DNA of 64,000 nt from an uncultured cyanobacterium (GTDB lineage Bacteria; Cyanobacteriota; Cyanobacteriia; Pseudanabaenales; Pseudanabaenaceae): assembly GCA_963703315.1 (NCBI GenBank), contig OY969811.1, positions 1,568,001 through 1,632,000 of the forward strand, read 5' to 3'. The notes beneath the pieces were generated by a model that did not search any database, had not been told where the DNA came from, and saw only the letters and a list, made by a program, of their open reading frames with translations. The stretch's first letter is position 1. Every line of letters begins with the position of its first letter. Positions 3,844-30,927 of this stretch are shown here, in pieces. Position numbers and translations under genes: made by a program.

Positions 3844-4737
3844 ATGCAAAATAAATCCGCCCGTTTCTACGCATTTCTCTCAATTGGAGCCGCACTATTA
3901 ACGATCGCCTTGAAATTAGGCGCTTACTTTTTAACTAATTCCGTTGGTTTTTTATCCGATGCGATGGAATCAGGTGTGAATCTAGTCGCAGCGCTTGGTG
4001 CAGTATGGGCGATCACTTATGCCGCTAAGCCTCCAGACGAAGAACACACCTTTGGGCATTCTAAAGCTGAATATTTTTCTAGTGGATTTGAAGGTGGATT
4101 AATTTTAGTGGCGGCTGTGAGTATTGCGATCGCCGCAATTCCCCGACTATTTAATCCTCAGCCATTGGAGCAAATTAGTTTAGGCTTAGTCTTGTCGTTA
4201 GCTGCATCAGCGATTAATGGAGGACTGGCGCTGATATTACTAAAAGCAGGAAAACGTCTGCACTCAATTACTTTACGAGCCGATGCCCATCACTTACTCA
4301 CCGATGTCTGGACTTCCGTAGGGGTAATTTTAGGCATCCTCTTAGTATCTGCAACTGGTTGGTTAATTCTCGATCCTATAATTGCCTTACTAGTCGCTGC
4401 CAATATTGTTTGGACTGGAGTTAAGCTAATCCAAGAAAGTGGTTCTGCACTATTAGATGCTTCTATTCCTTTGCTAGAGAGACAAATGATCGATGAAATT
4501 TTATCTCCTTACGATCGCCACAAAATCCAGTTTCACGCGATTCGTACCCGCATTGCAGGCACAAGAAGATTTGTATATTTTCATATTTTAGTGCCTGGAG
4601 CTTGGACTGTGCAAGAAGGTCATGATTTATGCGAAGAAATTGAGTCGAAGATTAGCGCCTCTCTTCCCAATATCAAAGTTTTTACGCATTTAGAACCTTT
4701 AGAAGATCCAAAATCATGGACTGATCAGGACTTATAA
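3844..4737 (+). CDS. Cation diffusion facilitator (FieF-like) transporter
   Basis: SDAMES, HTFGHSKAEY, ADAHHLLTD, C-terminal THLEP. Confidence 0.92.
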   Translation: MQNKSARFYAFLSIGAALLTIALKLGAYFLTNSVGFLSDAMESGVNLVAALGAVWAITYAAKPPDEEHTFGHSKAEYFSSGFEGGLILVAAVSIAIAAIPRLFNPQPLEQISLGLVLSLAASAINGGLALILLKAGKRLHSITLRADAHHLLTDVWTSVGVILGILLVSATGWLILDPIIALLVAANIVWTGVKLIQESGSALLDASIPLLERQMIDEILSPYDRHKIQFHAIRTRIAGTRRFVYFHILVPGAWTVQEGHDLCEEIESKISASLPNIKVFTHLEPLEDPKSWTDQDL

Positions 4738-4779
4738 AAAAAGAAGCTATCAGTTTTTTCGGATCTTTCGCATCTTTTT

Positions 4780-5670
4780 TTAGAGTTGATTCGTAGTGAA
4801 GGTATCACACTGATCGATCTTGCCAGTTTCTAAACCTTTCTTAAACCAAGTTACCCTCTGTTGGGAAGTGCCATGCGTGAAAGATTCTGGAGTAACATGA
4901 CCACCCTTAGATTGTTTTTGTAAATAGTCATCACCAATTTGAGTGGCAGTGTTAAGAGCCTTGGTAATGTCCTGATCACTGATCAAACCACGTTGAGCCG
5001 TGAAATGTCCCCAAATCCCTGCCAAACAATCTGCTTGCAGTTCTTGGCGTACCGACAGTTCATTAGCCTTAGCTTTGCTAGAACTAGCTTTTAACTGCCT
5101 GACTTTACTGGATGTACCGCGCAAAGTTTGGATATGATGTCCGACCTCATGGGCGATCGCATAAGCTCTGGCAAAGTCAGCATCATTACCTGCTGTAGCT
5201 TCAAGATATTTAAAAAATCCCATATCTAAATACACCTTCTTATCCGCAGGACAATAAAAAGGACCTGACGAAGTACTAGCCGCGCCACAGGCTGATTTTA
5301 CCGAGCCATCAAATAAGACCAATTTTGGGGCTTGATAGTTAGTTTTTAGCTGTTCTTTAAAGATTTTCGCCCAAGTATCCTCTGTATCGCCAAGAACTGA
5401 TTTGACAAAGGCAGAGTCACGATCTTTAGCGGGTTGTTTGACTAAGCCTTGGGGTGCAGGTTGCTGCGTATTCGAGAGAAAACCTAAAAGCTGAGCAGGA
5501 TTCACCTTGAACAATAGCCCCAGAACTACGGCGATCGCTACACCGCCAGCCCCTAATCCTCCTAAGCCTCCTAGCATTCCCAGAGGTGATGAAGATGGGC
5601 TAGACGAACTAGACGAGCCATCACGTTCATCCTCTACGTTATCACTCTCACGCATTTCATCCCATTTCAT
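4780..5670 (-). CDS. Neutral zinc metallopeptidase (YpfJ family)
   Basis: GPFYCPAD, AHEVGHH (HExxH), ELQADC, SFTHGTS. Confidence 0.92.
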   Translation of the reverse strand: MKWDEMRESDNVEDERDGSSSSSSPSSSPLGMLGGLGGLGAGGVAIAVVLGLLFKVNPAQLLGFLSNTQQPAPQGLVKQPAKDRDSAFVKSVLGDTEDTWAKIFKEQLKTNYQAPKLVLFDGSVKSACGAASTSSGPFYCPADKKVYLDMGFFKYLEATAGNDADFARAYAIAHEVGHHIQTLRGTSSKVRQLKASSSKAKANELSVRQELQADCLAGIWGHFTAQRGLISDQDITKALNTATQIGDDYLQKQSKGGHVTPESFTHGTSQQRVTWFKKGLETGKIDQCDTFTTNQL

Positions 5671-5700
5671 AGTTCTTCATCCTGTAGGTATGCCAATTTT

Positions 5701-5753
5701 ATATTATCGAAGAGAGATGCGCCGCGAAGCGGCGCATCTCTCTTCGATAATAT
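5701..5753. repeat. Perfect palindrome (25-bp arms, GAA loop)
   Basis: atattatcgaagagagatgcgccgc-gaa-gcggcgcatctctcttcgataatat. Confidence 0.9.
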
Positions 5754-5754
5754 T

Positions 5755-6555
5755 CTAAGCGCCCATGCCCGAATATTGCTTGATGCCTTTACGCCATAGC
5801 CAGCGATTGATCACAAAGGCAAGTCCCATCCATGCTGTCATTACGCCTAGTCCTTGCCAAATATTCACGGCTTTACCCACCAAGATCGCCGCAGGAAAGT
5901 ACACCATATAAGGAAATGGTGTAAACATCACAATCTCTCTTACTAAGGGGGGAAATACTTCTAAAGGTGCAATGATGCCTGATAGGAATATGTAGCATAG
6001 GAACCAAAGCTGCTCGATCGCACTAGCCCGTTCTGTCCAAAAGCACAGCAGCCCAAAATCATACTGAATCAAAAAGCGCAACATAAAGGCGATCGCTACG
6101 AGTAATGTCGCTATTAGTCCTGTAGACAATGAGGGAATCCAGAAGGATTGGGGGTAGAGAACAAAAAAGAGCGCAATCAACACCACCAACATCGGTAATC
6201 TCGCAACTCGCTCCGCAATGTGGTTCATCAAATGATGCCAAAAGGGATCGAGGGGTTGCAATAAACGGTGCGAAAGTTGTCCTGAAACAAGTTCCTTCTC
6301 AAAGTCCCAAATCACCCACACAATATTAAACTGACGGACTACAAATACTGCTAAGAAGTAACGGATAAATTCTAAAGCTGTAAAGCCGAAGTTAGCAGTT
6401 TCTGACGCTTTGAGCCATGCTCCCATCAAAATAAATGGCAAAGAATTTGACAATAACCAAATAAAAAGCTCTGCCCGATATTCGAGCATATAGGCATAGT
6501 AGGTGACAAATAATGTCTTGGTGACGCGGAGTATGTATCTAAGCTGAAGCTGCAT
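5755..6555 (-). CDS. ABC-2 type transporter permease (DUF990-like)
   Basis: YRAE motif, about 6 TM helices, C-terminal GIKQYSGMGA. Confidence 0.85.
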   Translation of the reverse strand: MQLQLRYILRVTKTLFVTYYAYMLEYRAELFIWLLSNSLPFILMGAWLKASETANFGFTALEFIRYFLAVFVVRQFNIVWVIWDFEKELVSGQLSHRLLQPLDPFWHHLMNHIAERVARLPMLVVLIALFFVLYPQSFWIPSLSTGLIATLLVAIAFMLRFLIQYDFGLLCFWTERASAIEQLWFLCYIFLSGIIAPLEVFPPLVREIVMFTPFPYMVYFPAAILVGKAVNIWQGLGVMTAWMGLAFVINRWLWRKGIKQYSGMGA

Positions 6556-6602
6556 AGGTTTATCAGTTTAGAGAGTTGCGCTTACTTTGCAGCGCAACTC
6601 TC

Positions 6603-7106
6603 CTATGAGTTAATAATGGAAGAAGATGCTTCTGATAAATGATGCGAATATTGATTGATTAGTTCAATATCAGTCGTTTGCCAGACTTTACAATCTTGAC
6701 AGTGATGGGCAACCAGCAAACCCCATAATTTGCCCTTAGTCAACACTGGAGCAACTAAATTTGAGCGTACTTGCAATGTTCTCAAAAAATCTCGATGACA
6801 AGCATTAATCGGTGCTGTCTCGATATCTTCGGTAGAATAGATGCGTCCTGCTAAATAAAGCGATGCATATTCAACATTGAAGCAATCATCAGCCCCTGTT
6901 GAACCAATAATCGAATATTTATGATCACTAATTGCTTCAAAGGTGACTTGTCCTTTCCATTGTGTGTAGAAATAATACAAAACCACGCGATCGACATTAA
7001 GCTGATCTCTAAGTTGGTGCAGCGTATCACTAACAACTTGATCTTGTTGTAGTTTATTAGTAATCCGACTTAAAACTGAACTCAAATCACGATTGGCATT
7101 ATTCAT
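6603..7106 (-). CDS. Stand-alone GAF protein, cyanobacteriochrome-like (DXCF type)
   Basis: DRVVLY, DDCF, ACH, LWGLLVAHHC motifs. Confidence 0.8.
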   Translation of the reverse strand: MNNANRDLSSVLSRITNKLQQDQVVSDTLHQLRDQLNVDRVVLYYFYTQWKGQVTFEAISDHKYSIIGSTGADDCFNVEYASLYLAGRIYSTEDIETAPINACHRDFLRTLQVRSNLVAPVLTKGKLWGLLVAHHCQDCKVWQTTDIELINQYSHHLSEASSSIINS

Positions 7107-7267
7107 TGTGGCAATAGAAATGATTAAGTCTGGGAAATTCAGTAAAATTAAGTCTGTACAAAGCAGTCAAAATGCTAAAGCATGGTCTGATTTGACTTAA
7201 AACAGTCGATGATGACCGATCAAGAGATTGCTATTCTAGTTCATATTATCTAGCTAAGAGTCTCCAA

Positions 7268-8113
7268 TTGCCTAAAGAATATCGCACCACAGGAATAAAT
7301 CTTAAGGGGATGCCGTTAGGTGAAAGCGATCGCCTATTAACGATCCTGACTAAAGAGCATGGCTTGATCCGAGCCGTTGTCGCTGGAGCCAGAAAACATC
7401 GCTCGGCAATGGCAGGGCGATCGGGCTTATTTGTGGTTAATGATTTGCAGATTTCAGTGGGGCGGACGATGGAGCGCGTTAAAAATGCCGAAATGTTACA
7501 ATCCTTTGTCGGTTTAGGGAAAACTTTAGCTAAGCTTACTGCTGCCCAATATCTATGCGAACTTGCCCTGATGCAAGCATTAACGGCTCAGCCCCAAGAG
7601 GAATTATTTTTGTTGTTAGTCGAGCATCTGGAGCGCATTCAGGAAGCTGAAAATCAAAACGTGTTAGCGCATTTAAATCATGGGATCTATCACCTATTGG
7701 CGATCGCAGGTTTTGCCCCTCAAGTACATAGCTGTTGCCTGAGCCAAAGTCCCGTGATTGCCGATCGCGAAAACCAAAAGTGGAAAGCAGGATTTAGCAT
7801 TGTCGGTGGTGGGGTGATTAACCTCGAAATAACCGATCTTGCCAGTGACGGTAATCCGAACGGCGATCGCCCTGATCAGGCTGAAACAATCACTAGTGAA
7901 GCGATGCATAACCGCATTAGTCACTACCTCAATGCACCTGAACTTATTGCTATGCAAGAACTCGCACAAACAGATTTAGCAGATAATATTTTAGAAGCAC
8001 CCGTAACTAATTGGCTAACAGTTGAAAGATTGTTACGAGCCTATGCACAGTATCATTTTGATAGACCAATCCAGTCATCTGCCTTGATTGACAACTGTTT
8101 TTTTAATATATGA
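7268..8113 (+). CDS. recO: DNA repair protein RecO
   Basis: GESDRLLTILTKEHGLIRAVVAGARK N-terminus; typical length. Confidence 0.93.
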   Translation: MPKEYRTTGINLKGMPLGESDRLLTILTKEHGLIRAVVAGARKHRSAMAGRSGLFVVNDLQISVGRTMERVKNAEMLQSFVGLGKTLAKLTAAQYLCELALMQALTAQPQEELFLLLVEHLERIQEAENQNVLAHLNHGIYHLLAIAGFAPQVHSCCLSQSPVIADRENQKWKAGFSIVGGGVINLEITDLASDGNPNGDRPDQAETITSEAMHNRISHYLNAPELIAMQELAQTDLADNILEAPVTNWLTVERLLRAYAQYHFDRPIQSSALIDNCFFNI

Positions 8114-9595: not shown

Positions 9596-11107
9596 TCAAC
9601 CTAAAAATAGCTTATAGGCAGGATTTTGGCTTTCATCCCAATAACGATAACCGAGCGTTTCCAGAAATGCTTGCCACTCTTCCATCTCTGTGGGTGGAAC
9701 TTGTACACCGACGACAATTCTGCCGTAGTCAGCGCCATTATTACGATAATGGAATAAGCTAATATTCCAATTAGGACTCATCGAACCGACAAACTTCATT
9801 AAGGCTCCTGGACGCTCAGGAAACTCAAAGCGATAGAGTAACTCATGATCAGCAAGAGGCGATCGCCCACCAACCATGTGACGCAAATGCAGTTTAGTGA
9901 GTTCATCATCAGTTAACTCGATCGCCATAAATCCATTTTCAGCAAACGACTTCGATAGGTTTGCCGCATCTGCACGATTGATAATTTGAATACCAGTAAA
10001 GATATGAGCAATTTCTTGATCAGCGATGCGATAGCTAAATTCAGTGAGGTTACGCTTACCCAAAAGTTCACAGAACTTCCGTAAGCTTCCTGCCTGTTCA
10101 GGAATCGTGACTGCAAAAATGGCTTCACGATGTTCGCCGAGTTCTGCCCGTTCTGCCACAAAGCGCAAACGGTCAAAGTTCATATTTGCACCACAGGCGA
10201 TCGCAACAAGGGTTTGACCTTCGATACCTTCCCTTTCGACATAAGCTTTTGCACCAGCGATCGCTAAAGCCCCAGCAGGTTCTAAAATTGAGCGCGTATC
10301 TTCAAAAACATCCTTAATTGCTGCACAGGTATCATCCGTATCAACAAGTAAAATTTCATCGACATATTGCTGACAAAGGCGGAATGTTTCTTGTCCAACT
10401 TCGCGCACGGCTACACCATCGGCAAACAATCCTACTTGATCGAGGCGTACCCGATGTCCTGCTTGCAGCGATCGCGACATTCCATCAGAATCCACTGGTT
10501 CTACACCAATAATTTTAATCTCAGGACGCAAGCGCTTCACATAGGCAGCCACGCCCGAAATCAGTCCACCACCACCGATCGCTACAAAAATCGCATGAAT
10601 CGGTTTCTGACATTGTCGCAAAATCTCCATCCCAATCGTTCCCTGACCTGCAATCACATCGGGATCATCAAAGGGATGGATAAAGGTTAAATTCTTTTCA
10701 GCTTCCAATTGACGCGCGTAGGTATATGCATCATCATAGGTATCACCATGCAGAACGACTTCCCCCCCACGCATTTTGACAGCGTTTACTTTCACCAGTG
10801 GCGTAGTTACGGGCATGACGATAATCGCCTTTGTGCCTAATTCACGAGCGCTGAGAGCAACCCCTTGAGCATGGTTGCCTGCGGATGCAGCAATCACTCC
10901 ATTAGCCAGCAAATCGGGTGGAAGTTGCGCCATTTTGTTATAAGCACCGCGCAATTTAAAAGAGAAAACCGACTGCATATCTTCTCTTTTTAGCAATAGT
11001 CGATTATTTAATCGTGCCGATAAATTGGGAGCAAATTCTAATGGTGTTTCTTGCGCGACATCATACACGCGAGCTTTGAGGATTCGTTCTAAATAGTCAG
11101 ATTGCAT
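9596..11107 (-). CDS. ilvA: Threonine ammonia-lyase, biosynthetic
   Basis: SFKLRGA PLP lysine, ASAGNHAQG, C-terminal ACT-like domains. Confidence 0.97.
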   Translation of the reverse strand: MQSDYLERILKARVYDVAQETPLEFAPNLSARLNNRLLLKREDMQSVFSFKLRGAYNKMAQLPPDLLANGVIAASAGNHAQGVALSARELGTKAIIVMPVTTPLVKVNAVKMRGGEVVLHGDTYDDAYTYARQLEAEKNLTFIHPFDDPDVIAGQGTIGMEILRQCQKPIHAIFVAIGGGGLISGVAAYVKRLRPEIKIIGVEPVDSDGMSRSLQAGHRVRLDQVGLFADGVAVREVGQETFRLCQQYVDEILLVDTDDTCAAIKDVFEDTRSILEPAGALAIAGAKAYVEREGIEGQTLVAIACGANMNFDRLRFVAERAELGEHREAIFAVTIPEQAGSLRKFCELLGKRNLTEFSYRIADQEIAHIFTGIQIINRADAANLSKSFAENGFMAIELTDDELTKLHLRHMVGGRSPLADHELLYRFEFPERPGALMKFVGSMSPNWNISLFHYRNNGADYGRIVVGVQVPPTEMEEWQAFLETLGYRYWDESQNPAYKLFLG

Positions 11108-21856: not shown

Positions 21857-21912
21857 AAAACCATTTAGAATAGAACTGTGCTTAGCACAGTTCTATTCTA
21901 AATGGTTTTATG
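21854..21912. repeat. 59-bp perfect palindrome forming the entire divergent intergenic region, including both start codons
   Basis: cataaaaccatttagaatagaactgtgc-tta-gcacagttctattctaaatggttttatg. Confidence 0.92.
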
Positions 21913-23961
21913 GCGAATTTGTGGATTGAGGGTGGTAGTCGTAGTGGCAAGACTGAACGAGTGGTTCAGCAGTTTTGTGACTGGGCAGAAACTGACTTTG
22001 CCAAAAAAGCTAATCCTCAAGCAGCTTCCCAAAAGGTTTTAGTTTTAACCGTTGATTCTGAGCAAAGACGCAAACTGAGCGATCACCTGATTGTCACCAC
22101 GCATGGGCGCTATCCTGTCACTGCGGTTACACCCTTGAGCTTTTTTCGCGATGAAGTGCGTTTATTTTGGACATTATTAGTCAAAAACCTTAACTTAAAG
22201 GCTCAGTTTCCTCTGCTTCTAAGAGTTGAAAATGAGCAGGAACTCACCAATCAAGTCTGGAAAGATCGCCTTGAAATGGGAACTCTGCAAAGGTCGGGAA
22301 TTGGACAGGAAAGGCTGGTACGCAGATTGTTAGATTTATTTTTGTTAGCCGCCTATAGTGGTCGAGAGATTACCGAAATTCCGACAATTCTCAATGCAGG
22401 TATTGAAACTAATCCCTTAGAATCTGCTCTTGATAATGGAGAACAAAATTCTCTATCCACAAGTTCCGTATTAGAGCAATGGCAAGAAATCGGGGAAGCT
22501 TTGCAAGAATGGCGGGACTATTGCTGGGAAAGAGGCTTGCTGACCTATGGCATTATTACCGATTTATTTGCCCATCATTTACTTCCAAATCTTCAATATC
22601 AACGAAGACTCAAGCAACGATTTCAATATATGATCGTTGACCGTGCCGATGAAATGCCAGCGATCACTTGTGATTTGTGCAAGTTTCTATTACAAAATGG
22701 CGCTCAAGGAATGGTTACGTTTAATCCTGATGGATCGGCAAGACTAGGACTAGGTGGTGATCCTGAATATTGGCAAGAAATTAAATCTGAATGTGAAGTA
22801 ATCAAGTTACCCCATGCCCAAAACACGTTAGGCGATGAAATTGGAGCATCAGTTTTAGAAGTTGTCCGCGAACCAATTTTACAGTTTATCGAACCCTATC
22901 CACAGGTTTATGCGATTGAATCAGTTTCTCGCGCCAAACTGTTCCGTAATGTTGCGGAAACGATCGCCTCAGCGATCGCTTCAGGTGAGATAAAAGCCAA
23001 CGAAATCGCCATTATTGCCCCCGGATTAGATAACATCGCCAAATATGCGATCGCCGAAATTCTCCGTAAAAAAGAAATCAATGTTAATCCCCTTAACGAT
23101 CAACGCCCCTTATCCTATTCTGCCCAAGTGCGATCGCTGCTTACTCTGATCACATTGGTCTATCCCAATCTTGGTAAATTAGTAAGTCGCGATCACATTG
23201 CCGAAATGTTGGTTGTGCTGATCGAGGCGATCGATCCAGTTCGGGCAGGAATGCTAGCTGACTATTGCTTTGCACCACATCCAGAGCATCCACAACTACT
23301 AGCATCAGAAACCTATAACCAATGGAATCGCCTCGGTTATGAAGCAACACAAGCCTATGCTCAATTACGAAAATGGATTGAACAACAATCACCTAAAGAC
23401 ACACCACTTCTATTCATAGATCGGGCAATTCAAGCCTTTTTTAAACCCCGTAAACTCAGCTATGAAAGTACTTCCACCTTACAATCATTAATCGAAACTG
23501 CTCAATATTATTGGCAGCTTGGCTATCGCCTCGATCAAGAAGATCCCATTATTCTCGAAAATTTTATTCAACTGATTCGACAAGGCACTGTCACTGCTAA
23601 TCCTTATGCCCCCAATCTCCCCCAAGATAGCGTTGTCCTTGCTACGATCTTCCAATACCGCATGGCAAGACTTTCCCACCGTTGGCAATTTTGGCTAGAT
23701 GCTAGTTCTGACCTTTGGCTACAGGGTGGAGCCGCATCTCTATTTGGTGCGCCACTCTTTCTCAAAGGTTGGCATGGAAAACTATGGACGACTGAGGATC
23801 AAAGCAAAGCCGATATGCAACGCTTAGAGAAGTTAATCAGAGATTTGCTCGATCGCACTGATGAGCGTCTATATCTCTGTCACAGCGAACTTAGTACTAA
23901 TGGTCAAATCCAAAATGGAGTCTTGAGTCCATTAATTGAGGTTAGTAGCACAAATTCATGA
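21910..23961 (+). CDS. Cyanobacterial P-loop protein, degenerate UvrD/AddB-like
   Basis: N-terminal EGGSRSGKT Walker A-like motif, IVDRADE Walker B-like motif, EIAIIAP. Confidence 0.7.
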   Translation: MANLWIEGGSRSGKTERVVQQFCDWAETDFAKKANPQAASQKVLVLTVDSEQRRKLSDHLIVTTHGRYPVTAVTPLSFFRDEVRLFWTLLVKNLNLKAQFPLLLRVENEQELTNQVWKDRLEMGTLQRSGIGQERLVRRLLDLFLLAAYSGREITEIPTILNAGIETNPLESALDNGEQNSLSTSSVLEQWQEIGEALQEWRDYCWERGLLTYGIITDLFAHHLLPNLQYQRRLKQRFQYMIVDRADEMPAITCDLCKFLLQNGAQGMVTFNPDGSARLGLGGDPEYWQEIKSECEVIKLPHAQNTLGDEIGASVLEVVREPILQFIEPYPQVYAIESVSRAKLFRNVAETIASAIASGEIKANEIAIIAPGLDNIAKYAIAEILRKKEINVNPLNDQRPLSYSAQVRSLLTLITLVYPNLGKLVSRDHIAEMLVVLIEAIDPVRAGMLADYCFAPHPEHPQLLASETYNQWNRLGYEATQAYAQLRKWIEQQSPKDTPLLFIDRAIQAFFKPRKLSYESTSTLQSLIETAQYYWQLGYRLDQEDPIILENFIQLIRQGTVTANPYAPNLPQDSVVLATIFQYRMARLSHRWQFWLDASSDLWLQGGAASLFGAPLFLKGWHGKLWTTEDQSKADMQRLEKLIRDLLDRTDERLYLCHSELSTNGQIQNGVLSPLIEVSSTNS

Positions 23962-23967
23962 AAAAAG

Positions 23968-24198
23968 ATGCATTTTGGAAGCCCGAATGCTCGCTATTTA
24001 AAAAAGGCGATTAAGTCAGCCGATCGGGTTGTTGTTGCTTGGGGAAATAACGGGAAGTTAATGCAACGCGATCGCCTTGTTTTAGAGTTGCTATCTAAAC
24101 AAAATATTCAACCTCACTGTTTAGGAATCACAAAATCAGGCTATTCGCGTCATTCGCTATACATTCTGTGTAGTAAGCAATTGAGGGTTTGCAGGTGA
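23968..24198 (+). pseudogene. C-terminal fragment of a DUF1643-family protein
   Basis: VVVAWGNNG and CLGITKSG-SRHSLY resemble the DUF1643 C-terminus; N-terminal half missing. Confidence 0.65.
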
Positions 24199-24287: not shown

Positions 24288-26402
24288 ATGCATTTCAAAT
24301 TTTCTCCAAGTATCCTTAGCAGACTAGGAGAAGAACTAATTCCTAATCCTGATCAGGGTATTTTGGAGCTAGTCAAAAACTCTTATGATGCAGATGCTAC
24401 AGTGTGTGAGATCGAGTTACTAAATACCGAGGAGATCGGTGGCAGTATTGTGATCTCCGATAACGGTATGGGGATGGATCTTGAAACTCTTCAAAGTGGC
24501 TGGTTAGTTATTGGAAAATCTGAAAAAGAGGCGGCTAGTGATCGCACATCTCTTAATAGATTGAGAGTAGGATCTAAAGGTTTAGGGAGGCTTGCCGCAT
24601 TACGACTAGGAACTCATGTAGAACTCACCACACGACCAAAAAGTGAATCAAACATAGAATATTCCGTTAGTATGTGCTGGGATGATTTTAACAATGTTGA
24701 TTCTGTGGAAAAAGTAATTTTTTCTCCCACAACTAAGCCAACAGAGTGTAGACATGGAACAAAAATTGTAGTTAGTAATTTGAACGTAAAAATAGGTAAG
24801 CGAGAGGTTAATAGACTTGCAAGAGAGTTATTACTACTAGCCGATCCTTTTGACACTAACACATCGTTTCGACCTAAGTTAATTGGAACTGGATTTACGG
24901 ACTTAGAAAAGCAAGTCAATGAACAATTTTTTGAAGATGCCGAATTCTTTCTTAAAGCATCTCTTGACAAGAATGGATATGCTTCTGCTCAGTTAGTGGA
25001 TTGGAAAGGTTCTACTGTCGCTATAGCTTCACATTCTGATATTAGTAAATATCGACAACAATTAGATATAAATGAGGGATTACCAGATGGAACAAATTTA
25101 TCTATGGATAGTCCTTATCAAAACTCTGTACCTGCTAACTTTGAACTGTGGATTTTTCAACTTAATCCACAAAGCTTTTCCACTAAAAATCGTGAAGATA
25201 ATTCTCGGCAAATCCGCAGATGGTTGGCAGAAGTTGGTGGTGTACATCTGTATCATCGAGGATTGAGAGTTGCTCCTTATGGAGATAAGGGTGATGATTG
25301 GCTAAAAATCAATTTGTCGAGATCTCGGAATCCTCAAGTCCGCCCTTCAACAAGCACCGTCATTGGTAGGGTTATTGCAGAAGATGCAAATAGTCTCTTG
25401 TTACAAAAAACAAATCGTCTGGGATTTCTAGAAAATGAAACTTTTCTTAATCTGCAACAATTTGCAATGAATACACTTGAATGGATTGCAAATTTTCGTT
25501 TGCAAACAGTAGAAGTAAAACAGGAACAGGTAAAAAGACAAATAAAACCTAAGATTGCTGAAGCTAAGAAAAACATAGAAGATATTATTACTACTTATAT
25601 TCCAGAACCAAAACCTAGAGAAAAAACACTATTAGCAGTAGAAGATTATGACAAGGTCAGAGAAGAAGAGGTGGAAGTCTTAAATGTTGAACTACAACTA
25701 TATCGTAGCTTAGCAACAGCAGGGACTACTGCTGCTATCTTTGCTCATGAATCTGGCAGAGAAATTAACACCTTAAAAGGTCAAGTTGGTATTTTAAATG
25801 CAAAAATGCAGAAATATGTAGAAACCGAAATATATCTCAAGTATTTTGCAAAAACCTTTACAAATATTCAAAAACTAGCTGGTTCGGTTCAAGGCTTTGC
25901 TAAATATCCAATTTATCTATTAAAAAAAGAAAAGCGATCACAAGGAAAAGTTGAAATACATCAAGTGATAAATGATGTAATCAGCTTGTTTGATCCTTTT
26001 CTCGAAAGTTCTAATACTACTATTGAGTTAGATAGAGTAAATGCTGAACTTAATTTGCGAGGAAGTACGGCTCTCGTAGAGGCAATTTTAATTAATCTAA
26101 TTACTAATGCAATTAATGCTTTTAATACTAAAGATGCACCTATTCAAAATCGCAAGATTGTAATCCGAACTGAATCAAATGAAGACTTTATTTGGCTAAG
26201 AGTTATGGATAATGCTTTGGGTATTCAAGGGCTTACAATAGATGAAATCTGGCTGGCTGGCAAAACCACCACGAGATCGGGTACTGGGTTAGGATTGAAA
26301 ATAGCAAAAGACTCAGTTATAGATTTGGGAGGACAAATTAGTGCCGTTGCCAATGGTCAACTAGGTGGGGCAGAGTTTATCGTTCAGTTACCTTTAAAGT
26401 AG
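24288..26402 (+). CDS. MORC/MutL-like GHKL ATPase fused to a C-terminal histidine kinase
   Basis: N-terminal ELVKNSYDA, DNGMGM, GSKGLGRLA, GTKI; C-terminal H-box FAHE, N-box NLITNAINA, DNALG, GTGLGL. Confidence 0.88.
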   Translation: MHFKFSPSILSRLGEELIPNPDQGILELVKNSYDADATVCEIELLNTEEIGGSIVISDNGMGMDLETLQSGWLVIGKSEKEAASDRTSLNRLRVGSKGLGRLAALRLGTHVELTTRPKSESNIEYSVSMCWDDFNNVDSVEKVIFSPTTKPTECRHGTKIVVSNLNVKIGKREVNRLARELLLLADPFDTNTSFRPKLIGTGFTDLEKQVNEQFFEDAEFFLKASLDKNGYASAQLVDWKGSTVAIASHSDISKYRQQLDINEGLPDGTNLSMDSPYQNSVPANFELWIFQLNPQSFSTKNREDNSRQIRRWLAEVGGVHLYHRGLRVAPYGDKGDDWLKINLSRSRNPQVRPSTSTVIGRVIAEDANSLLLQKTNRLGFLENETFLNLQQFAMNTLEWIANFRLQTVEVKQEQVKRQIKPKIAEAKKNIEDIITTYIPEPKPREKTLLAVEDYDKVREEEVEVLNVELQLYRSLATAGTTAAIFAHESGREINTLKGQVGILNAKMQKYVETEIYLKYFAKTFTNIQKLAGSVQGFAKYPIYLLKKEKRSQGKVEIHQVINDVISLFDPFLESSNTTIELDRVNAELNLRGSTALVEAILINLITNAINAFNTKDAPIQNRKIVIRTESNEDFIWLRVMDNALGIQGLTIDEIWLAGKTTTRSGTGLGLKIAKDSVIDLGGQISAVANGQLGGAEFIVQLPLK

Positions 26403-26412
26403 GATAATTTAT

Positions 26413-27132
26413 ATGCAAATTCAGCAAATTCGTAAAGTCGCGATCGTAGATGACACACAGAGTGCTAGGGAAGAGCTAGCTGAAACTCTTGAAATAGTCG
26501 GGTTTGAACCTTTTATAGTTGAAAATTCTTGGACTGAAATTAATTCTTTAGTAGAACATATCCAAGCAAATTCTCAGGCGGTTATTTGCGATCATCGGCT
26601 TTCTGATAGTGGGTTAGCTTCATTTACAGGGGCTGAATTAATGCCTTCACTTTATAAAAACAAATTTCCATTTCTCCTAATAACTCAATACACTGATCAG
26701 GATATTAATGATTCTATTCGTAAATATAGAGATAAAATTCCTATCGTCTTGAAACGAGAGGAGCTAATTGATTTATATGATATAAATACTATTGGTAATA
26801 AAATCAAAAAAGGACTTGAAACTTGTTCTCAAGAGTTTCAAAATATCATGTCGTCAACACGCCGACCTCATAGAACGTTTATCCATATCGTTAACATTAA
26901 TAATGGTCTTGTAGAGGCATTTGTTCCAAGCTGGAATCCTTACCATGCAGTGAGCTTCCCACTATCACTAATATCAGAAGAGTTTTCCTCTAATATAGAG
27001 TCTCGTCTTAAACAAAAAGAAGATACTTGGTTAATTGCTTGCGTTAATACAGGAGCAGAAAAAGCAGATGACCTTTACTTTACAAAATTTGAAGTCGCAC
27101 CAGAGTTAGATGAAAATGATGGACTTGCCTAG
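26413..27132 (+). CDS. Response regulator receiver protein with an uncharacterised C-terminal domain
   Basis: VAIVDD, ICDH (putative phospho-Asp), LIT; 10 bp after the kinase stop. Confidence 0.8.
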   Translation: MQIQQIRKVAIVDDTQSAREELAETLEIVGFEPFIVENSWTEINSLVEHIQANSQAVICDHRLSDSGLASFTGAELMPSLYKNKFPFLLITQYTDQDINDSIRKYRDKIPIVLKREELIDLYDINTIGNKIKKGLETCSQEFQNIMSSTRRPHRTFIHIVNINNGLVEAFVPSWNPYHAVSFPLSLISEEFSSNIESRLKQKEDTWLIACVNTGAEKADDLYFTKFEVAPELDENDGLA

Positions 27133-28108
27133 ATTAATAGTTTTAGATGTCGCTCATGGTAACTGCTCAATTCTTCAGGATACCGAAGGTACTATTGTCA
27201 TTGACTGCGCTCATGGTGATACGTTGATTGAAACCCTTCGGCATCTTAAGATTTCGCAAGTTGATCGCATCATGATTTCTCATGCCGATCAAGATCACTT
27301 CAAGGGATTTATCGATTTACTTGCAGATGAATCAATAACCGTAAAATATGTTCATCTCAATCCTGACCCAAAGAAAGAAACTCTGGTTTTTAGAGCTTTA
27401 CGTCGAGCCATTGGAGAGGCAAAGGAACGGAATGGTACAACTCATGAATTACTACATACAGGAATGATGGGTAAACTAGATATTGGAGAAGTTAGGATTG
27501 AAATTCTCTCTCCAAGTATAGATATCATGGGCTATTCAGGTGGTCAAGATTTACAAGGAAGAAACTTAACATCTAATTCTGTGTCAGCAGTTATTCGGCT
27601 TGTTTATAAATCTCGCGGAGTAGCACTTCTTGCAGGAGATATTGATCAGGTAGGTTTAGATAATTTACTCAATAATAGATATGAAGTTGAATCTGACATT
27701 CTTGTTTTCCCTCATCATGGAGGTAATACAGGTACAGGTAAAAGCACAGAAAACCATGAATTTACTATCAAATTGTGCCAACAAGTAAAACCAAATTTAG
27801 TGATCTTCTCAACTGGTAGAAGGGATAAAGAACCACATTATCCTCGCCAAGAAATTGTACAATCTTTACTTGCTATACTTCCCGATGTACATATTATGTG
27901 TACTCAGCTTGCTAAAACTTGCTCTGCCGAGATATTAACAATTCCTGCTCACTTAAACAAACTTCCATCAAGAGGGCAAGACGATAATCACTGCTGTGGT
28001 GGAACAGTTGTCATCAATTTAAGTGAAACTGAAACAACTTATGCTCCAAACAGTGATCATCGTCAATTTGTCAAAGAAAATATAGTTTCTGCTTTGTGTA
28101 TGCGTTGA
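27110..28108 (+). CDS. ComEC/Rec2-like metallo-beta-lactamase-fold hydrolase (putative nuclease)
   Basis: DVAHGN, ID, SHADQDH, LLAGD, FPHHG, HYP; overlaps the receiver gene. Confidence 0.88.
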   Translation: MKMMDLPRLIVLDVAHGNCSILQDTEGTIVIDCAHGDTLIETLRHLKISQVDRIMISHADQDHFKGFIDLLADESITVKYVHLNPDPKKETLVFRALRRAIGEAKERNGTTHELLHTGMMGKLDIGEVRIEILSPSIDIMGYSGGQDLQGRNLTSNSVSAVIRLVYKSRGVALLAGDIDQVGLDNLLNNRYEVESDILVFPHHGGNTGTGKSTENHEFTIKLCQQVKPNLVIFSTGRRDKEPHYPRQEIVQSLLAILPDVHIMCTQLAKTCSAEILTIPAHLNKLPSRGQDDNHCCGGTVVINLSETETTYAPNSDHRQFVKENIVSALCMR

Positions 28109-28131
28109 GAACAGCGATCGCATTTAAGAGC

Positions 28132-28308
28132 AACGGCAAACCCTCCCTAGAATGAATTATGGAACGCGATCGCCTCACCCGCGACAAACATAAAACATAG
28201 CGGAATTACCAACAATCCCAACGACCAATCAAGCGATCGCGCTACATCCTCGACCTCGTTAAGTGCGAGTCGGTTAAAATCGTGAATACCTTACCACCAT
28301 TACAGGAG
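28132..28308 (+). pseudogene. Repeat copy 1: degraded 3' end of a type ISP restriction-modification gene
   Basis: Across frames translates NGKPSLE*IMER-RLTRDK / SGITNNPND / RYILDLVK / ESVKIVNTLPPL. Confidence 0.75.
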
Positions 28309-28320
28309 AACAGACACACC

Positions 28321-28542
28321 ATGCTTAAACCGATCACCCTTCAAGTCGAAGCCCCCATCGCCGAGGCATATCAAAATATAACCCCAGAAAATCGTCAAGC
28401 CTTGCAAACACTTGTCAGCATCTTTTTACAATGTATTTCCCCACCAACCCCACTACAAAAAGTAGTCCAAGAGATTCGTTTAGAAGCACAACAAAATGGA
28501 CTTACTCCCGAAATCTTAGAGGAAATCCTCAAGGATGACTAA
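28321..28542 (+). CDS. Putative antitoxin
   Basis: Small ORF ending GLTPEILEEIL, overlapping the downstream PIN gene; ATG at 28321. Confidence 0.75.
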   Translation: MLKPITLQVEAPIAEAYQNITPENRQALQTLVSIFLQCISPPTPLQKVVQEIRLEAQQNGLTPEILEEILKDD

Positions 28543-28966
28543 ACTAAGATTAGTAATCGATACCAACATCTTGATCAGTGGCTTAATGTCTGTAAATTCT
28601 TTGCCCCAGCAGGTTTTCGACTATGCCACATCTCAAGCAATACTCCTGATATCAGATGAAGTTCAATCAGAAATAGAAAACGTCATCAGCCGCCCAAAAC
28701 TCCAAAAATACATCACCTTAGAAAGACGTACTACATTTTTAAGTGAGTTAAGTCAGCAGGTCGAAAGAGTCACAATCAACCAGCAAATTCGAGCCTGTCG
28801 AGATCCCAAAGATGACAAGTTCCTAGAGTTAGCTGTCTGCGGTGAAGCTAACTACATCATTACAGGCGATGCCGATCTTTTAGATTTACATCCATTCCAA
28901 AATATTTCTATCCTTAAAGCCGCTAGTTTTTTAACTGCGATCGCGCTACATCCTCGACCTCGTTAA
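28535..28966 (+). CDS. PIN-family toxin
   Basis: VIDTN, CRDPKDDKFLELA, ITGDADLL; C-terminus runs into repeat copy 2. Confidence 0.9.
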   Translation: MTKLRLVIDTNILISGLMSVNSLPQQVFDYATSQAILLISDEVQSEIENVISRPKLQKYITLERRTTFLSELSQQVERVTINQQIRACRDPKDDKFLELAVCGEANYIITGDADLLDLHPFQNISILKAASFLTAIALHPRPR

Positions 28967-29037
28967 GTGCGATCGCGAGTGTCAGCATCGAGTCAGTTAA
29001 AATAATTAATAGCTTGCCCCCATTGCAGAAAAAGTAA
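28937..29037 (+). repeat. Repeat copy 2: type ISP 3'-end remnant
   Basis: gcgatcgcgctacatcctcgacctcgttaagtgcgatcgc...; encodes RYILDLVK / IASVSIESVKIINSLPPLQKK*. Confidence 0.85.
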
Positions 29038-29080
29038 ACTCAACCTTGCATAATCTAGAATTTATTTGAGGTAAACCATT

Positions 29081-29395
29081 ATGTTGCAACTAGAAATCAA
29101 ATCCGATGCACCCGATCTCGAAATCGTCCAAAACCTAGTCAGAGCCGCGATTGATGCAGAAATCAAAAACTTACAGCGATCGCTAGATAAAACTAATAAA
29201 TTTTTAAAAGAATTTGAAACCAAATATCAAATCTCCTCCGACCTTTTTCTCAGTGATTGGACTGCTGAAGACCTCAAAGGTGGTGACGAAGAATATGTGA
29301 GTTGGGCAGGTGAAGCCAAAATCAAGAAGAGACTAACTAGTTCTCTACAAAAGTTACAAGCGATCGAATATGTTACTCAACAACTATCAATCTAA
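29081..29395 (+). CDS. Putative antitoxin-like small protein
   Basis: FETKYQISS...EEYVSWAGE pattern; overlaps the downstream toxin-like remnant. Confidence 0.6.
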   Translation: MLQLEIKSDAPDLEIVQNLVRAAIDAEIKNLQRSLDKTNKFLKEFETKYQISSDLFLSDWTAEDLKGGDEEYVSWAGEAKIKKRLTSSLQKLQAIEYVTQQLSI

Positions 29396-29559
29396 CATCA
29401 TCTCCATTATTCAAAAATATGTAAATGATGGATGGATTCTATCCTTTAACTTTTCTGTTGATCCTAGATCATAAACATATCAAAGATAAAATCATTTCCT
29501 CTGAAATTCCAGATATTGAGCAAGTGATCCTAGAAATTATTACCGATTATTTAAGTTAA
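29370..29559 (+). pseudogene. Internally deleted DUF6516/TumE-like toxin gene
   Basis: MLLNNYQS...FSVDPRS* joined out of frame to HKHIKDKIISSEIPDIEQVILEI. Confidence 0.55.
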
Positions 29560-29564
29560 ATCCC

Positions 29565-29698
29565 TTATAGAAAGCGATCGCCTCACCCGTGATAAAGATC
29601 GCACTACATCCTCGACCTCGTTAAGTGCGATCGTCCGCGTAAGTGTCGAGTCCGTTAAAATTGTGAATAGCTTGCCACCATTGAATGAACGCATATAA
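29565..29698 (+). repeat. Repeat copy 3: type ISP 3'-end remnant
   Basis: Encodes DRLTRDKD / YILDLVK / IVRVSVESVKIVNSLPPLNERI*. Confidence 0.85.
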
Positions 29699-29771
29699 TC
29701 GCCATGATATAGAGCAAACTTATAGTTACGCTATACTAGCTAATGATTCCAACTTTCGCAGGATTGGGAAA

Positions 29772-30029
29772 ATGAACATTGCTTTAAAGCCAGAACAGGA
29801 AAATTTTATTCTCGCCAAACTTCAAGATGGCAAGTATCAGAGTGTTGACTCTCTCCTAGCTTTTGCATTTCAACTACTAGAAGAACATGAAGCCAAACAA
29901 CAAAAGTTGAGCGAACTAAGAAAAAAAATTGCTGAAGGAATGGAGCAAATCAAACAAGGCGATGTCGTTGATGGTGAATTAGTATTTCAACAATTACAGG
30001 TCAAACTAGAGCAGATGAGTCAAAAATAA
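29772..30029 (+). CDS. parD: ParD-like ribbon-helix-helix antitoxin
   Basis: MNIALKPEQENFI...GKYQS...LRKKIAEG; ATG at 29772. Confidence 0.82.
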   Translation: MNIALKPEQENFILAKLQDGKYQSVDSLLAFAFQLLEEHEAKQQKLSELRKKIAEGMEQIKQGDVVDGELVFQQLQVKLEQMSQK

Positions 30030-30041
30030 AAAAGATTCATT

Positions 30042-30353
30042 ATGTCTAGCTACTCCTTCTCAAAAATAGCCATCAAAGATCTAGACGATATCTGCACATT
30101 TATTGGACAGATCAATCCAAAAGCTGCGAGTAATCTATTTGATAATATTCGTCAAAAATGTAAGCTCGTTGCTAGTTTCCCCAACATGGGCAAAAACTAC
30201 ACTTGGATTGCTGCCAATTTGCGTGGTTTCACAATAGATGATTACATCGTCTTTTACTATCCTCGTAACGATGGCATTGATATCATTCGAGTGATATCTG
30301 GGAAACGAGATCTTGAGTCCATATTTGAAGAATTTACTGATGAAAATAATTAG
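30042..30353 (+). CDS. parE: ParE/RelE family toxin
   Basis: AIKDLDDI, FPNMG, YIVFY, IIRVISGKRD. Confidence 0.9.
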   Translation: MSSYSFSKIAIKDLDDICTFIGQINPKAASNLFDNIRQKCKLVASFPNMGKNYTWIAANLRGFTIDDYIVFYYPRNDGIDIIRVISGKRDLESIFEEFTDENN

Positions 30354-30363
30354 TATCTTTTTA

Positions 30364-30534
30364 CGATGCCGATCTTTTAGATTTACATCCATTTCAAAAT
30401 ATTTCTATCATTAAAGCCGCTAGTTTTTTAACTGTGATCGCGCTACATTCTTGACCTCGTTAAGTGCGATCGCGCGAGTAAGTGTGGAGTCCGTTAAAAT
30501 TGTGAATAGCTTACTACCATTGAATGAGAGATAG
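30364..30534 (+). repeat. Duplicated PIN-gene 3' end plus repeat copy 4 (type ISP 3'-end remnant)
   Basis: 30364-30479 is near-identical to 28867-28980; then encodes IARVSVESVKIVNSLLPLNER*. Confidence 0.85.
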
Positions 30535-30608
30535 AAAATTTTGCTATAATTCACCATAATGGCACTTCATGAATTGCCCCTTACCATTACTAAAAACATC
30601 AACCCACC

Positions 30609-30767
30609 ATGAAAGCCTCTTTAATCAAGATCAAAAAACCTAGCAAAGAAGACCTCCTTGCTTTCCGCCGTTCTTCTCAAAAAATGGCTGAATTATTAAA
30701 AGCTCACGGCATTAGCGAAGACGACATCATTGCCGAATTTAACGCTCTGCGTAAACAAGCAAGATGA
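30609..30767 (+). CDS. Small putative antitoxin (52 aa, below the ORF-track cutoff)
   Basis: MKASLIKIKKPSKEDLLAFRRSSQKMAELLKAHGISEDDIIAEFNALRKQAR, directly before a PIN remnant. Confidence 0.6.
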   Translation: MKASLIKIKKPSKEDLLAFRRSSQKMAELLKAHGISEDDIIAEFNALRKQAR

Positions 30768-30927
30768 AGCGCAAAGACGCATTAAAGCAAGAGATCCTAA
30801 CGATTGGGAAGTGGTTGCCTTAGCCATGCACTTTGATTGTCCAATTTGGACAGAAGACAAAGACTTTTTTGGAATTGGCATCGCCACATGGAACAGCCAA
30901 AACGTAGAAATTTATCTTATGCAATGA
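30764..30927 (+). pseudogene. C-terminal half of a PIN-domain toxin
   Basis: RDPNDWEVVALA...IWTEDKDFFG; the N-terminal DTN/DAN motif is missing. Confidence 0.7.

Follow-up and report, generated by a model that had tools for sequence, protein, structure and literature searches.

A mobile GHKL-kinase, receiver and ComEC-type MBL gene trio with a probable defence role in cyanobacteria

Kinase-gated defence systems and the cyanobacterial trio

Anti-phage defence gated by a histidine kinase is already known from Detocs and Ambrosia. Ambrosia of Pseudomonas aeruginosa (AbrR-AbrA-AbrB-AbrC-AbrD) combines an XRE protein, an N6 methylase, an HSP90-like kinase, a winged-helix receiver and an HNH protein; D60A abolishes its defence, and its methylase gives phage no protection (bioRxiv 10.1101/2025.09.30.679545). 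In Detocs (DtcA-DtcB-DtcC), the effector is gated directly by His-Asp phosphotransfer (bioRxiv 10.1101/2023.01.24.525353). Kinases with two GHKL modules next to a receiver and near restriction-modification (RM) genes have also been described, as the HEF_HK (PF19191)/Response_reg_2 (PF19192) paraMORC-like loci (Bellieny-Rabelo et al., PMC8011034). Here we analyse a trio of genes in a 64,000-nucleotide stretch of DNA, referred to as the window, from an uncultured cyanobacterium of the Pseudanabaenaceae (contig OY969811.1). The trio encodes a GHKL ATPase-histidine kinase fusion (gene 1), a response regulator (gene 2) and a hydrolase of the metallo-beta-lactamase (MBL) fold (gene 3), and an earlier note, made from the sequence, had put it forward as a new defence system.

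The trio would work like Ambrosia and Detocs but belongs to neither. With Ambrosia it shares the arrangement, in one operon, of a GHKL/HSP90-like ATPase joined to a histidine kinase, a receiver with a phospho-acceptor Asp and a gene for a (here predicted) nuclease. The receiver domains are homologous (probability 97%, the profile alignment with Ambrosia-like receivers spanning residues 8-95 only), and the kinases are ~27-30% identical between the trio and Ambrosia-like loci, which stand in for the Abr proteins themselves. Unlike Ambrosia, the trio has an MBL effector instead of the HNH protein AbrD, a receiver tail predicted to adopt an oligonucleotide/oligosaccharide-binding (OB) fold instead of a winged helix, and no N6 methylase (AbrA) at the loci of its clade; the XRE gene (AbrR) is also missing upstream, where the open reading frame (ORF; at least 60 aa) is a DUF1643 fragment. 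In common with Detocs, the trio comprises three genes without a methylase and would switch its effector by His-to-Asp phosphotransfer. Detocs differs in that tetratricopeptide repeats appear in the figure legend, a GHKL sensor is not described in the available text and the effector is mostly a PNP ATP nucleosidase; moreover, its effector is fused to a receiver and an extra lone receiver serves as buffer, whereas the trio has a single receiver and encodes the MBL as a separate gene.

The resemblance to the HEF_HK/Response_reg_2 loci lies in the soluble kinase composed of HATPase_c_3, H-box and HATPase_c beside a receiver, but those loci are mainly tied to C5 methylases, HNH and Vsr, and a term search of the available text of PMC8011034 finds none of 'lactamase', 'MBL', 'ComEC' and 'cyanobact'. 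The PF19191 and PF19192 profiles do not match the trio at E 0.1, and a likely positive control, a 477-aa gene following a C5 methylase and a distant kinase (L096), is equally unmatched. The paraMORCs themselves were defined by Iyer et al. (PMC2292703), in whose available text the word 'receiver' does not occur. Set against paraMORC2-5, which have an N-terminal GHKL module and an S5 part, gene 1 matches MutL/MORC in its GHKL part, while a profile search gave no significant match for the S5 part of the MORC clamp; unlike paraMORC3, it ends in a kinase and not in an RE-fold nuclease.

For the effector, the closest comparison is ComEC, in which the DNA affinity of the lactamase domain is undetectably weak and an OB-fold on the same chain, though not a free one, raises activity about seven-fold (PMC12455585). 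ComEC-like MBLs of defence systems are latent DNases opened by proteases (PMC12799240; bioRxiv 10.1101/2025.11.14.688446). The trio has in common with these proteins a ComEC-type MBL active site, a predicted OB-fold partner and what would be a latent DNase as defence effector. It departs from them in that the MBL is soluble, forms a chain of its own apart from the OB domain and carries a Cys/His extension, and in that the operon holds no protease gene; the gate would be phosphorylation, as opposed to proteolysis. No MBL version of the system was found in the literature searched, a coverage outside which subscription papers mostly lie. In PADLOC no full system model matches the trio, as the earlier note had expected of a novel system, and NCBIfam likewise yields no full membership. 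The trio is a methylase-less branch of a four-gene family that is sister to the Ambrosia-like loci. Its new features are the MBL effector, the predicted OB-fold output of the receiver and the clade-wide loss of the methylase.

A four-gene family and the apparent loss of its methylase

The loci come from plasmids and species genomes as well as from metagenomes and virus records, and the set analysed consists of the 79 with a full-length kinase scoring >600 bits, leaving out distant kinases, duplicates with short flanks and kinases that are truncated or split (e.g. L036, L065, L119). The three genes co-occur across phyla: the receiver follows the kinase in 77 of the 79 loci, and the MBL is present in all 69 with at least 1.5 kb of downstream sequence. 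The receiver family alone comprises 362 clusters at 50% identity (E 1e-30 or better). The trio is the core of a four-gene family of N6-adenine methylase, GHKL-kinase, receiver and ComEC-type MBL, in which the cognate methylase is adjacent at 38 of 43 loci outside a cyanobacterial clade and at none of 36 inside it (34 of these with at least 800 bp upstream). As for the five remaining loci outside the clade, L062 lacks upstream sequence, the 290-673 bp in front of L063, L069 and L070 contain no methylase end, and L076 carries a different methylase on the other strand.

In the kinase tree, the 36 methylase-less loci form one branch nested among methylase-bearing rows; the 58-row tree, which leaves out distant kinases and many close relatives, retains 23 rows of this clade with support 98/89. 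The group was delimited after the first tree had been seen, and its metagenome members were assigned by tree position and density of the HIP1 motif (GCGATCGC). All three genes are under purifying selection, with dN/dS values of 0.11-0.41 in 18 of 18 comparisons (six locus pairs and three genes, Nei-Gojobori script). This selection, together with the nested position of the branch, suggests that the methylase was lost once in the cyanobacterial lineage and that the trio has been maintained since. The statement in the earlier note that no methyltransferase is present accordingly holds for the locus and the host genome, where a profile search did not find the cognate N6-adenine methylase, but not as a basic trait, since the loss appears to be derived. 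Broken copies (L001, L023, L036, L119) and the dependence of Ambrosia on its methylase (bioRxiv 10.1101/2025.09.30.679545) could argue for an inactive remnant, left over when the four-gene system lost its methylase, yet we hold this to be very improbable, as the methylase-less clade has diverged to ~50% kinase identity with its catalytic residues kept, and the dN/dS values signal selection rather than decay. In comparisons with L005 and L007, dS is 0.52-0.58 for the kinase and 0.88-1.27 for receiver and MBL, hinting at recombination within the operon.

A different explanation of the loss would be that the trio reads a methylation mark made by resident methylases of the host, its own methylase thus being redundant in cyanobacteria. 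Cyanobacteria carry GATC or CGATCG methylases; the loss maps to one cyanobacterial clade, all loci of which are HIP1-rich (at least 2.4 sites per 10 kb), and only 1 of 401 genomes of the host phylum, a member of another class, gives a full match to the cognate methylase profile, the 7 carriers of the trio giving none. We nevertheless consider this explanation unlikely: the methylase is also missing directly upstream in the non-cyanobacterial L069 (290 bp) and L070 (673 bp), the latter having 2 GATC sites against 26 expected, and other methylases stand beside the trio in L076 and L119/L228, suggesting a loose tie. A Dam-like substitution as general cause of the methylase loss is unsupported outside cyanobacteria.

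The cognate methylase family also precedes the kinase-receiver-HNH operons L145 and L151, which is the layout of Ambrosia. Distant kinase-receiver-HNH operons (L100, L139, L147, L153) have an Eco57I-type methylase downstream and not upstream, a further Ambrosia-like arrangement. What follows the methylase family in L211 (1501-3794) is not a kinase but a gene of 331 aa, presumably RelA/SpoT-like to judge by its motifs, which makes up another partner set.

The trio is a real, selected and mobile three-gene unit of constant gene order and patchy occurrence. Within the host phylum, the receiver and MBL profiles match the same 7 of 401 genomes, including the host, and the two genes are adjacent at all 8 places; mobile copies are found on plasmids and in IMG/VR virus records. 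One provirus (G703, L119/L228) carries a frameshifted trio flanked on one side by a directly adjoining CI-type repressor and on the other by a convergent gene showing C5-methylase motifs, beside an integrase-like gene; compared with E. coli genomes, the L119 DNA gave no match. In L197 (1-1698), a short virus contig has a receiver and MBL at its edge, accompanied by genes that by eye resemble those for a replication-initiation protein and a glycine-rich coat protein, suggesting a filamentous prophage.

Domains of the three proteins and a proposed mechanism

The domain assignments of the earlier note were upheld for all three proteins. Gene 1 consists of a MutL/MORC-like GHKL ATPase (~residues 1-400; Pfam HATPase_c_3 at 24-135), a likely coiled-coil linker, a DHp domain with an intact H-box (H487-E488) and a kinase catalytic domain (HATPase_c at 597-703). 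The best PDB matches of its N-terminal profile are MutL, MORC3 and MORC2 (E 3e-8 to 1e-6), and its C-terminal part matches kinases at E 2e-37. Residues E27, N31, D58, K97, R377, H487, N603, N607 and D641 show no variation among 80 homologues. The protein is soluble, the highest 19-residue hydropathy being 1.48 with no membrane helix evident.

In gene 2, the receiver residues are D13, D14, D60 and T91, and the phospho-acceptor D60 is kept in 145 of 150 sequences. The AlphaFold2 model (pLDDT 96.3) shows a receiver domain (Z 13.2), followed by a long helix and then by a barrel of five strands and one main helix; the barrel, formed by the C-terminal tail (~150-230), is predicted with pLDDT 86.8 when isolated. 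Its best structural matches are the OB domains of cold-shock proteins, EF-P/eIF5A and DNA ligase (Z 6.6, rmsd 3.1, 75 residues aligned) and not winged helices, so that the tail, described before as a C-terminal domain other than a helix-turn-helix, is now predicted to be an OB-fold. It has no Pfam family (49 members) and no credible sequence match in the PDB, and in the Atlas search the clusters are all unnamed and the tail alone is without match. A match to the designed proteins OR276/OR277 was set aside as arising from two weak repeats.

Gene 3 shows the MBL fold (Lactamase_B, E 1e-10 in Pfam) with an intact H58-x-D60-x-D62-H63 motif, matches ComEC_Rec2 in NCBIfam (E 8e-11) and has ComEC proteins as its top five PDB matches. 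The metal-binding residues H58, D60, D62, H63, D177, H202 and H203 are present in 72 of 72 homologues, and C264, C271, C296, H317 and C330 of the C-terminal Cys/His extension in 66-70 of the 72; the protein is a predicted DNase. Compared with the MBL systems of PADLOC (PDC-M48B, RTasMBL, LmuA), 6A-MBL and Avs1a, it lacks both a full-length match and the partner genes, with a best score of 37.6 bits in PADLOC and elsewhere 27 bits where the cut-off is 220 and 16 bits where it is 420.

A pointer to how tail and hydrolase may cooperate comes from L189, a locus of which 11 kb were fetched and whose genome shares its phylum with a Chloroflexota carrier. There (4159-7870), an unrelated N6 methylase of 890 aa continues in frame into the tail domain and is followed, with a similar short overlap, by an MBL of the same family, and neither kinase nor receiver is matched in the 11 kb. 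Plasmid homologues of the methylase are followed by a PIN gene in both of the two opened (of three). Since L189 pairs tail and MBL in this way while the methylase homologues precede PIN, the pair has moved as a unit, and it is likely that the two also act as one, like the OB and lactamase domains of ComEC. The L189 pair may possibly be a two-gene methylase-OB/MBL system of its own.

In the mechanism that we propose, the ATP-gated MutL/MORC-like clamp, standing in the place of a sensor domain, would close on foreign, abnormal or damaged DNA; this engagement would be coupled through the linker to autophosphorylation of H487, from which the phosphate would pass to D60. Phosphorylation of D60 would free or reposition the OB domain, which would then bind the MBL and supply DNA affinity, and the MBL would degrade DNA, most likely without sequence specificity. 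In the relatives, the methylase may contribute to sensing or licensing, a contribution that the cyanobacterial branch does without. The sensing role of the clamp is drawn from the established function of MutL and MORC proteins and from its being the sole input domain of the kinase. Docking of OB on MBL is suggested by the L189 pairing, the OB effect in ComEC, the latency of defence MBLs and an operon without a protease. We regard a role of the trio in defence as probable. The chances are about even that it is a mobile system against phages or plasmids whose GHKL-kinase senses invading or abnormal DNA and whose phosphorylated receiver docks with its OB tail on the MBL DNase and feeds DNA to it, and we are equally divided over the post-translational step from OB to MBL taken by itself. 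Only tentatively do we suggest the most specific version, in which the receiver output is an OB-fold DNA-loading subunit, phosphorylation assembles the OB and lactamase pair, and the MutL/MORC-like clamp tells foreign from self DNA without a methylase of its own. Of the interpretation in the earlier note, a His-Asp relay switching a nuclease is thus retained as the best reading; the claim to a new kind of system is not.

Several observations weigh against this proposal. Ambrosia requires every gene, the methylase included, and its authors favour transcriptional control (bioRxiv 10.1101/2025.09.30.679545); such a dependence is hard to square with an active system that has no methylase. The L189 fusion is a single case, with no other among the matches listed for longer proteins, and lone tail-domain genes (L034, L035) as well as an MBL-less receiver-like gene (L190) occur. 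Structural scores for the tail are middling (Z 6.6; best Foldseek E 0.04, none at 0.001 or better), and a fold assignment does not show function. Receivers usually carry a Lys where gene 2 has R115, a position at which, of 150 sequences, 89 have Arg and 13 have Lys, and the G1 box of this kinase has an Ala at 643, shared by 6 of 80 homologues. Enrichment in defence islands, which the earlier note had proposed as a check, is not seen for the cyanobacterial copies: counting PADLOC matches at E 1e-20 or better within 3.5 kb in the subsets of loci with enough flank, 8 of 116 ORFs (4 of 19 loci) match, compared with 4 of 62 ORFs at least 5 kb away. Many neighbours of the cyanobacterial trio are housekeeping genes (EF-G, PutA, BMC-domain genes). 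One of the PADLOC matches near these copies is itself probably a housekeeping Ser/Thr kinase. In favour of a defence role, methylase-bearing loci have matches for 13 of 119 ORFs, at 9 of 22 loci.

Control of expression at the level of transcription or translation, as proposed for Ambrosia, offers another way to connect receiver and MBL: the cold-shock-like OB domain of the phosphorylated receiver would bind DNA or mRNA of the operon and switch on the MBL. Ambrosia is induced on infection (bioRxiv 10.1101/2025.09.30.679545), and RNA-binding cold-shock domains rank first among the structures that match the tail. We think such control improbable here, as the tail accompanies the MBL in L189 without kinase or receiver and is not a winged helix, the receiver aligns with Ambrosia-like receivers over residues 8-95 only, and no XRE gene lies upstream of the trio. 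The absence of enrichment near defence genes would also suit a non-defence role in cyanobacteria, for example as a checkpoint for DNA damage or nucleotide stress or as a selfish addiction module; several Nostoc genomes carry it at the same site next to EF-G, and the substrate of the MBL is inferred. Such a role appears to us no likelier than expression control, given the occurrence in just 7 of 401 genomes with neighbours varying by locus, the plasmid and prophage copies, and the anti-phage activity of the closest validated relative.

Among the lone tail genes, the 91-aa one in L034 (8506-10568) immediately precedes two genes that by eye look methylase-like and, in convergent orientation, restriction-enzyme-like, and a pair of AAA ATPase and HNH-like genes lies nearby; that of L035 is at 10001-10279. 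In Nostoc paludosum (L014, 11785-15642), the trio has as its immediate neighbour a CBASS operon (TIR effector, cyclase, TGT, QueC), which counts in favour of a defence role.

The locus, its flanks and what the trio may mean

The genes are tightly coupled, with a 10-bp gap between genes 1 and 2 and a 23-bp overlap of genes 2 and 3 (Table 1). As noted earlier, the block is AT-rich and free of HIP1: the GC content of the trio is 36.4% as compared to 42.2% for the genome, and the motif, which has 118 sites in the window, is absent between 24076 and 28113. This 4,046-bp interval would be expected to hold ~7 sites; in the genome, with 8,189 sites at a mean spacing of 557 bp, just 32 gaps are this long. 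Low GC and the rare HIP1 gap together point to acquisition from outside. That the host is a cyanobacterium is likewise indicated by its density of HIP1 and by the nearest relatives. Pseudanabaena UWO311 (L007) has the block as well, ~80% identical in its DNA and flanked immediately by the same features, including the DUF1643 fragment upstream.

Table 1. Features of the locus in window coordinates
Feature	Position	Strand	Basis
Gene 1, GHKL ATPase-histidine kinase	24288-26402	+	ORF, 704 aa
Gene 2, response regulator	26413-27132	+	ORF, 239 aa
Gene 3, ComEC-type MBL-fold hydrolase	27110-28108	+	ORF, 332 aa
DUF1643 C-terminal fragment (left flank, outside the system; occupies the methylase position of relatives)	23968-24198	+	Pfam
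Four HIP1-containing repeats and toxin-antitoxin cassettes (right flank, outside the system)	28114-30927	+	Pfam, repeat comparison

On the right, the repeats (28233, 28937, ~29595 and ~30434) are separated by a PIN pair, ParD/ParE and a PIN fragment. The adjoining toxin-antitoxin cassettes of the earlier note are recognised by Pfam (PIN_3, ParD/ParE); its RM remnant is weakly supported, by a match to the C-terminus of the type ISP enzyme of the genome (10 residues, 80% identical, E 0.41). The four repeats (28233-30527) are unique to this place in the genome and weakly similar to a type ISP restriction gene at its 3' end; contig joints between them may reflect cassette shuffling or assembly ambiguity. 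Upstream, a 683-aa gene (21910-23961) has weak similarity to UvrD/GajB and no homologue in the related loci searched, which places it outside the system. An insertion site common with Nostoc was rejected, as the 682-aa upstream gene there is EF-G and unrelated to the 683-aa gene. A promoter scan gave 7 sites, fewer than the 13.4 in shuffles, and metatranscriptome contigs ~90% alike that cover the trio (e.g. 8,812 nt, depth 326, X6) were not used, as contigs cannot show transcription.

The trio provides a minimal, three-protein case of the question posed by Ambrosia, namely what the GHKL-kinase senses and what the methylase does; that a whole clade persists without the methylase bears on the purpose of this enzyme. 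Should the docking of the OB domain prove true, phosphorylation would join proteolysis as a gate of MBL DNases, and receivers would gain an added type of output, acting on a nuclease directly and not on transcription. Filamentous and bloom-forming cyanobacteria would then have a further defence system.

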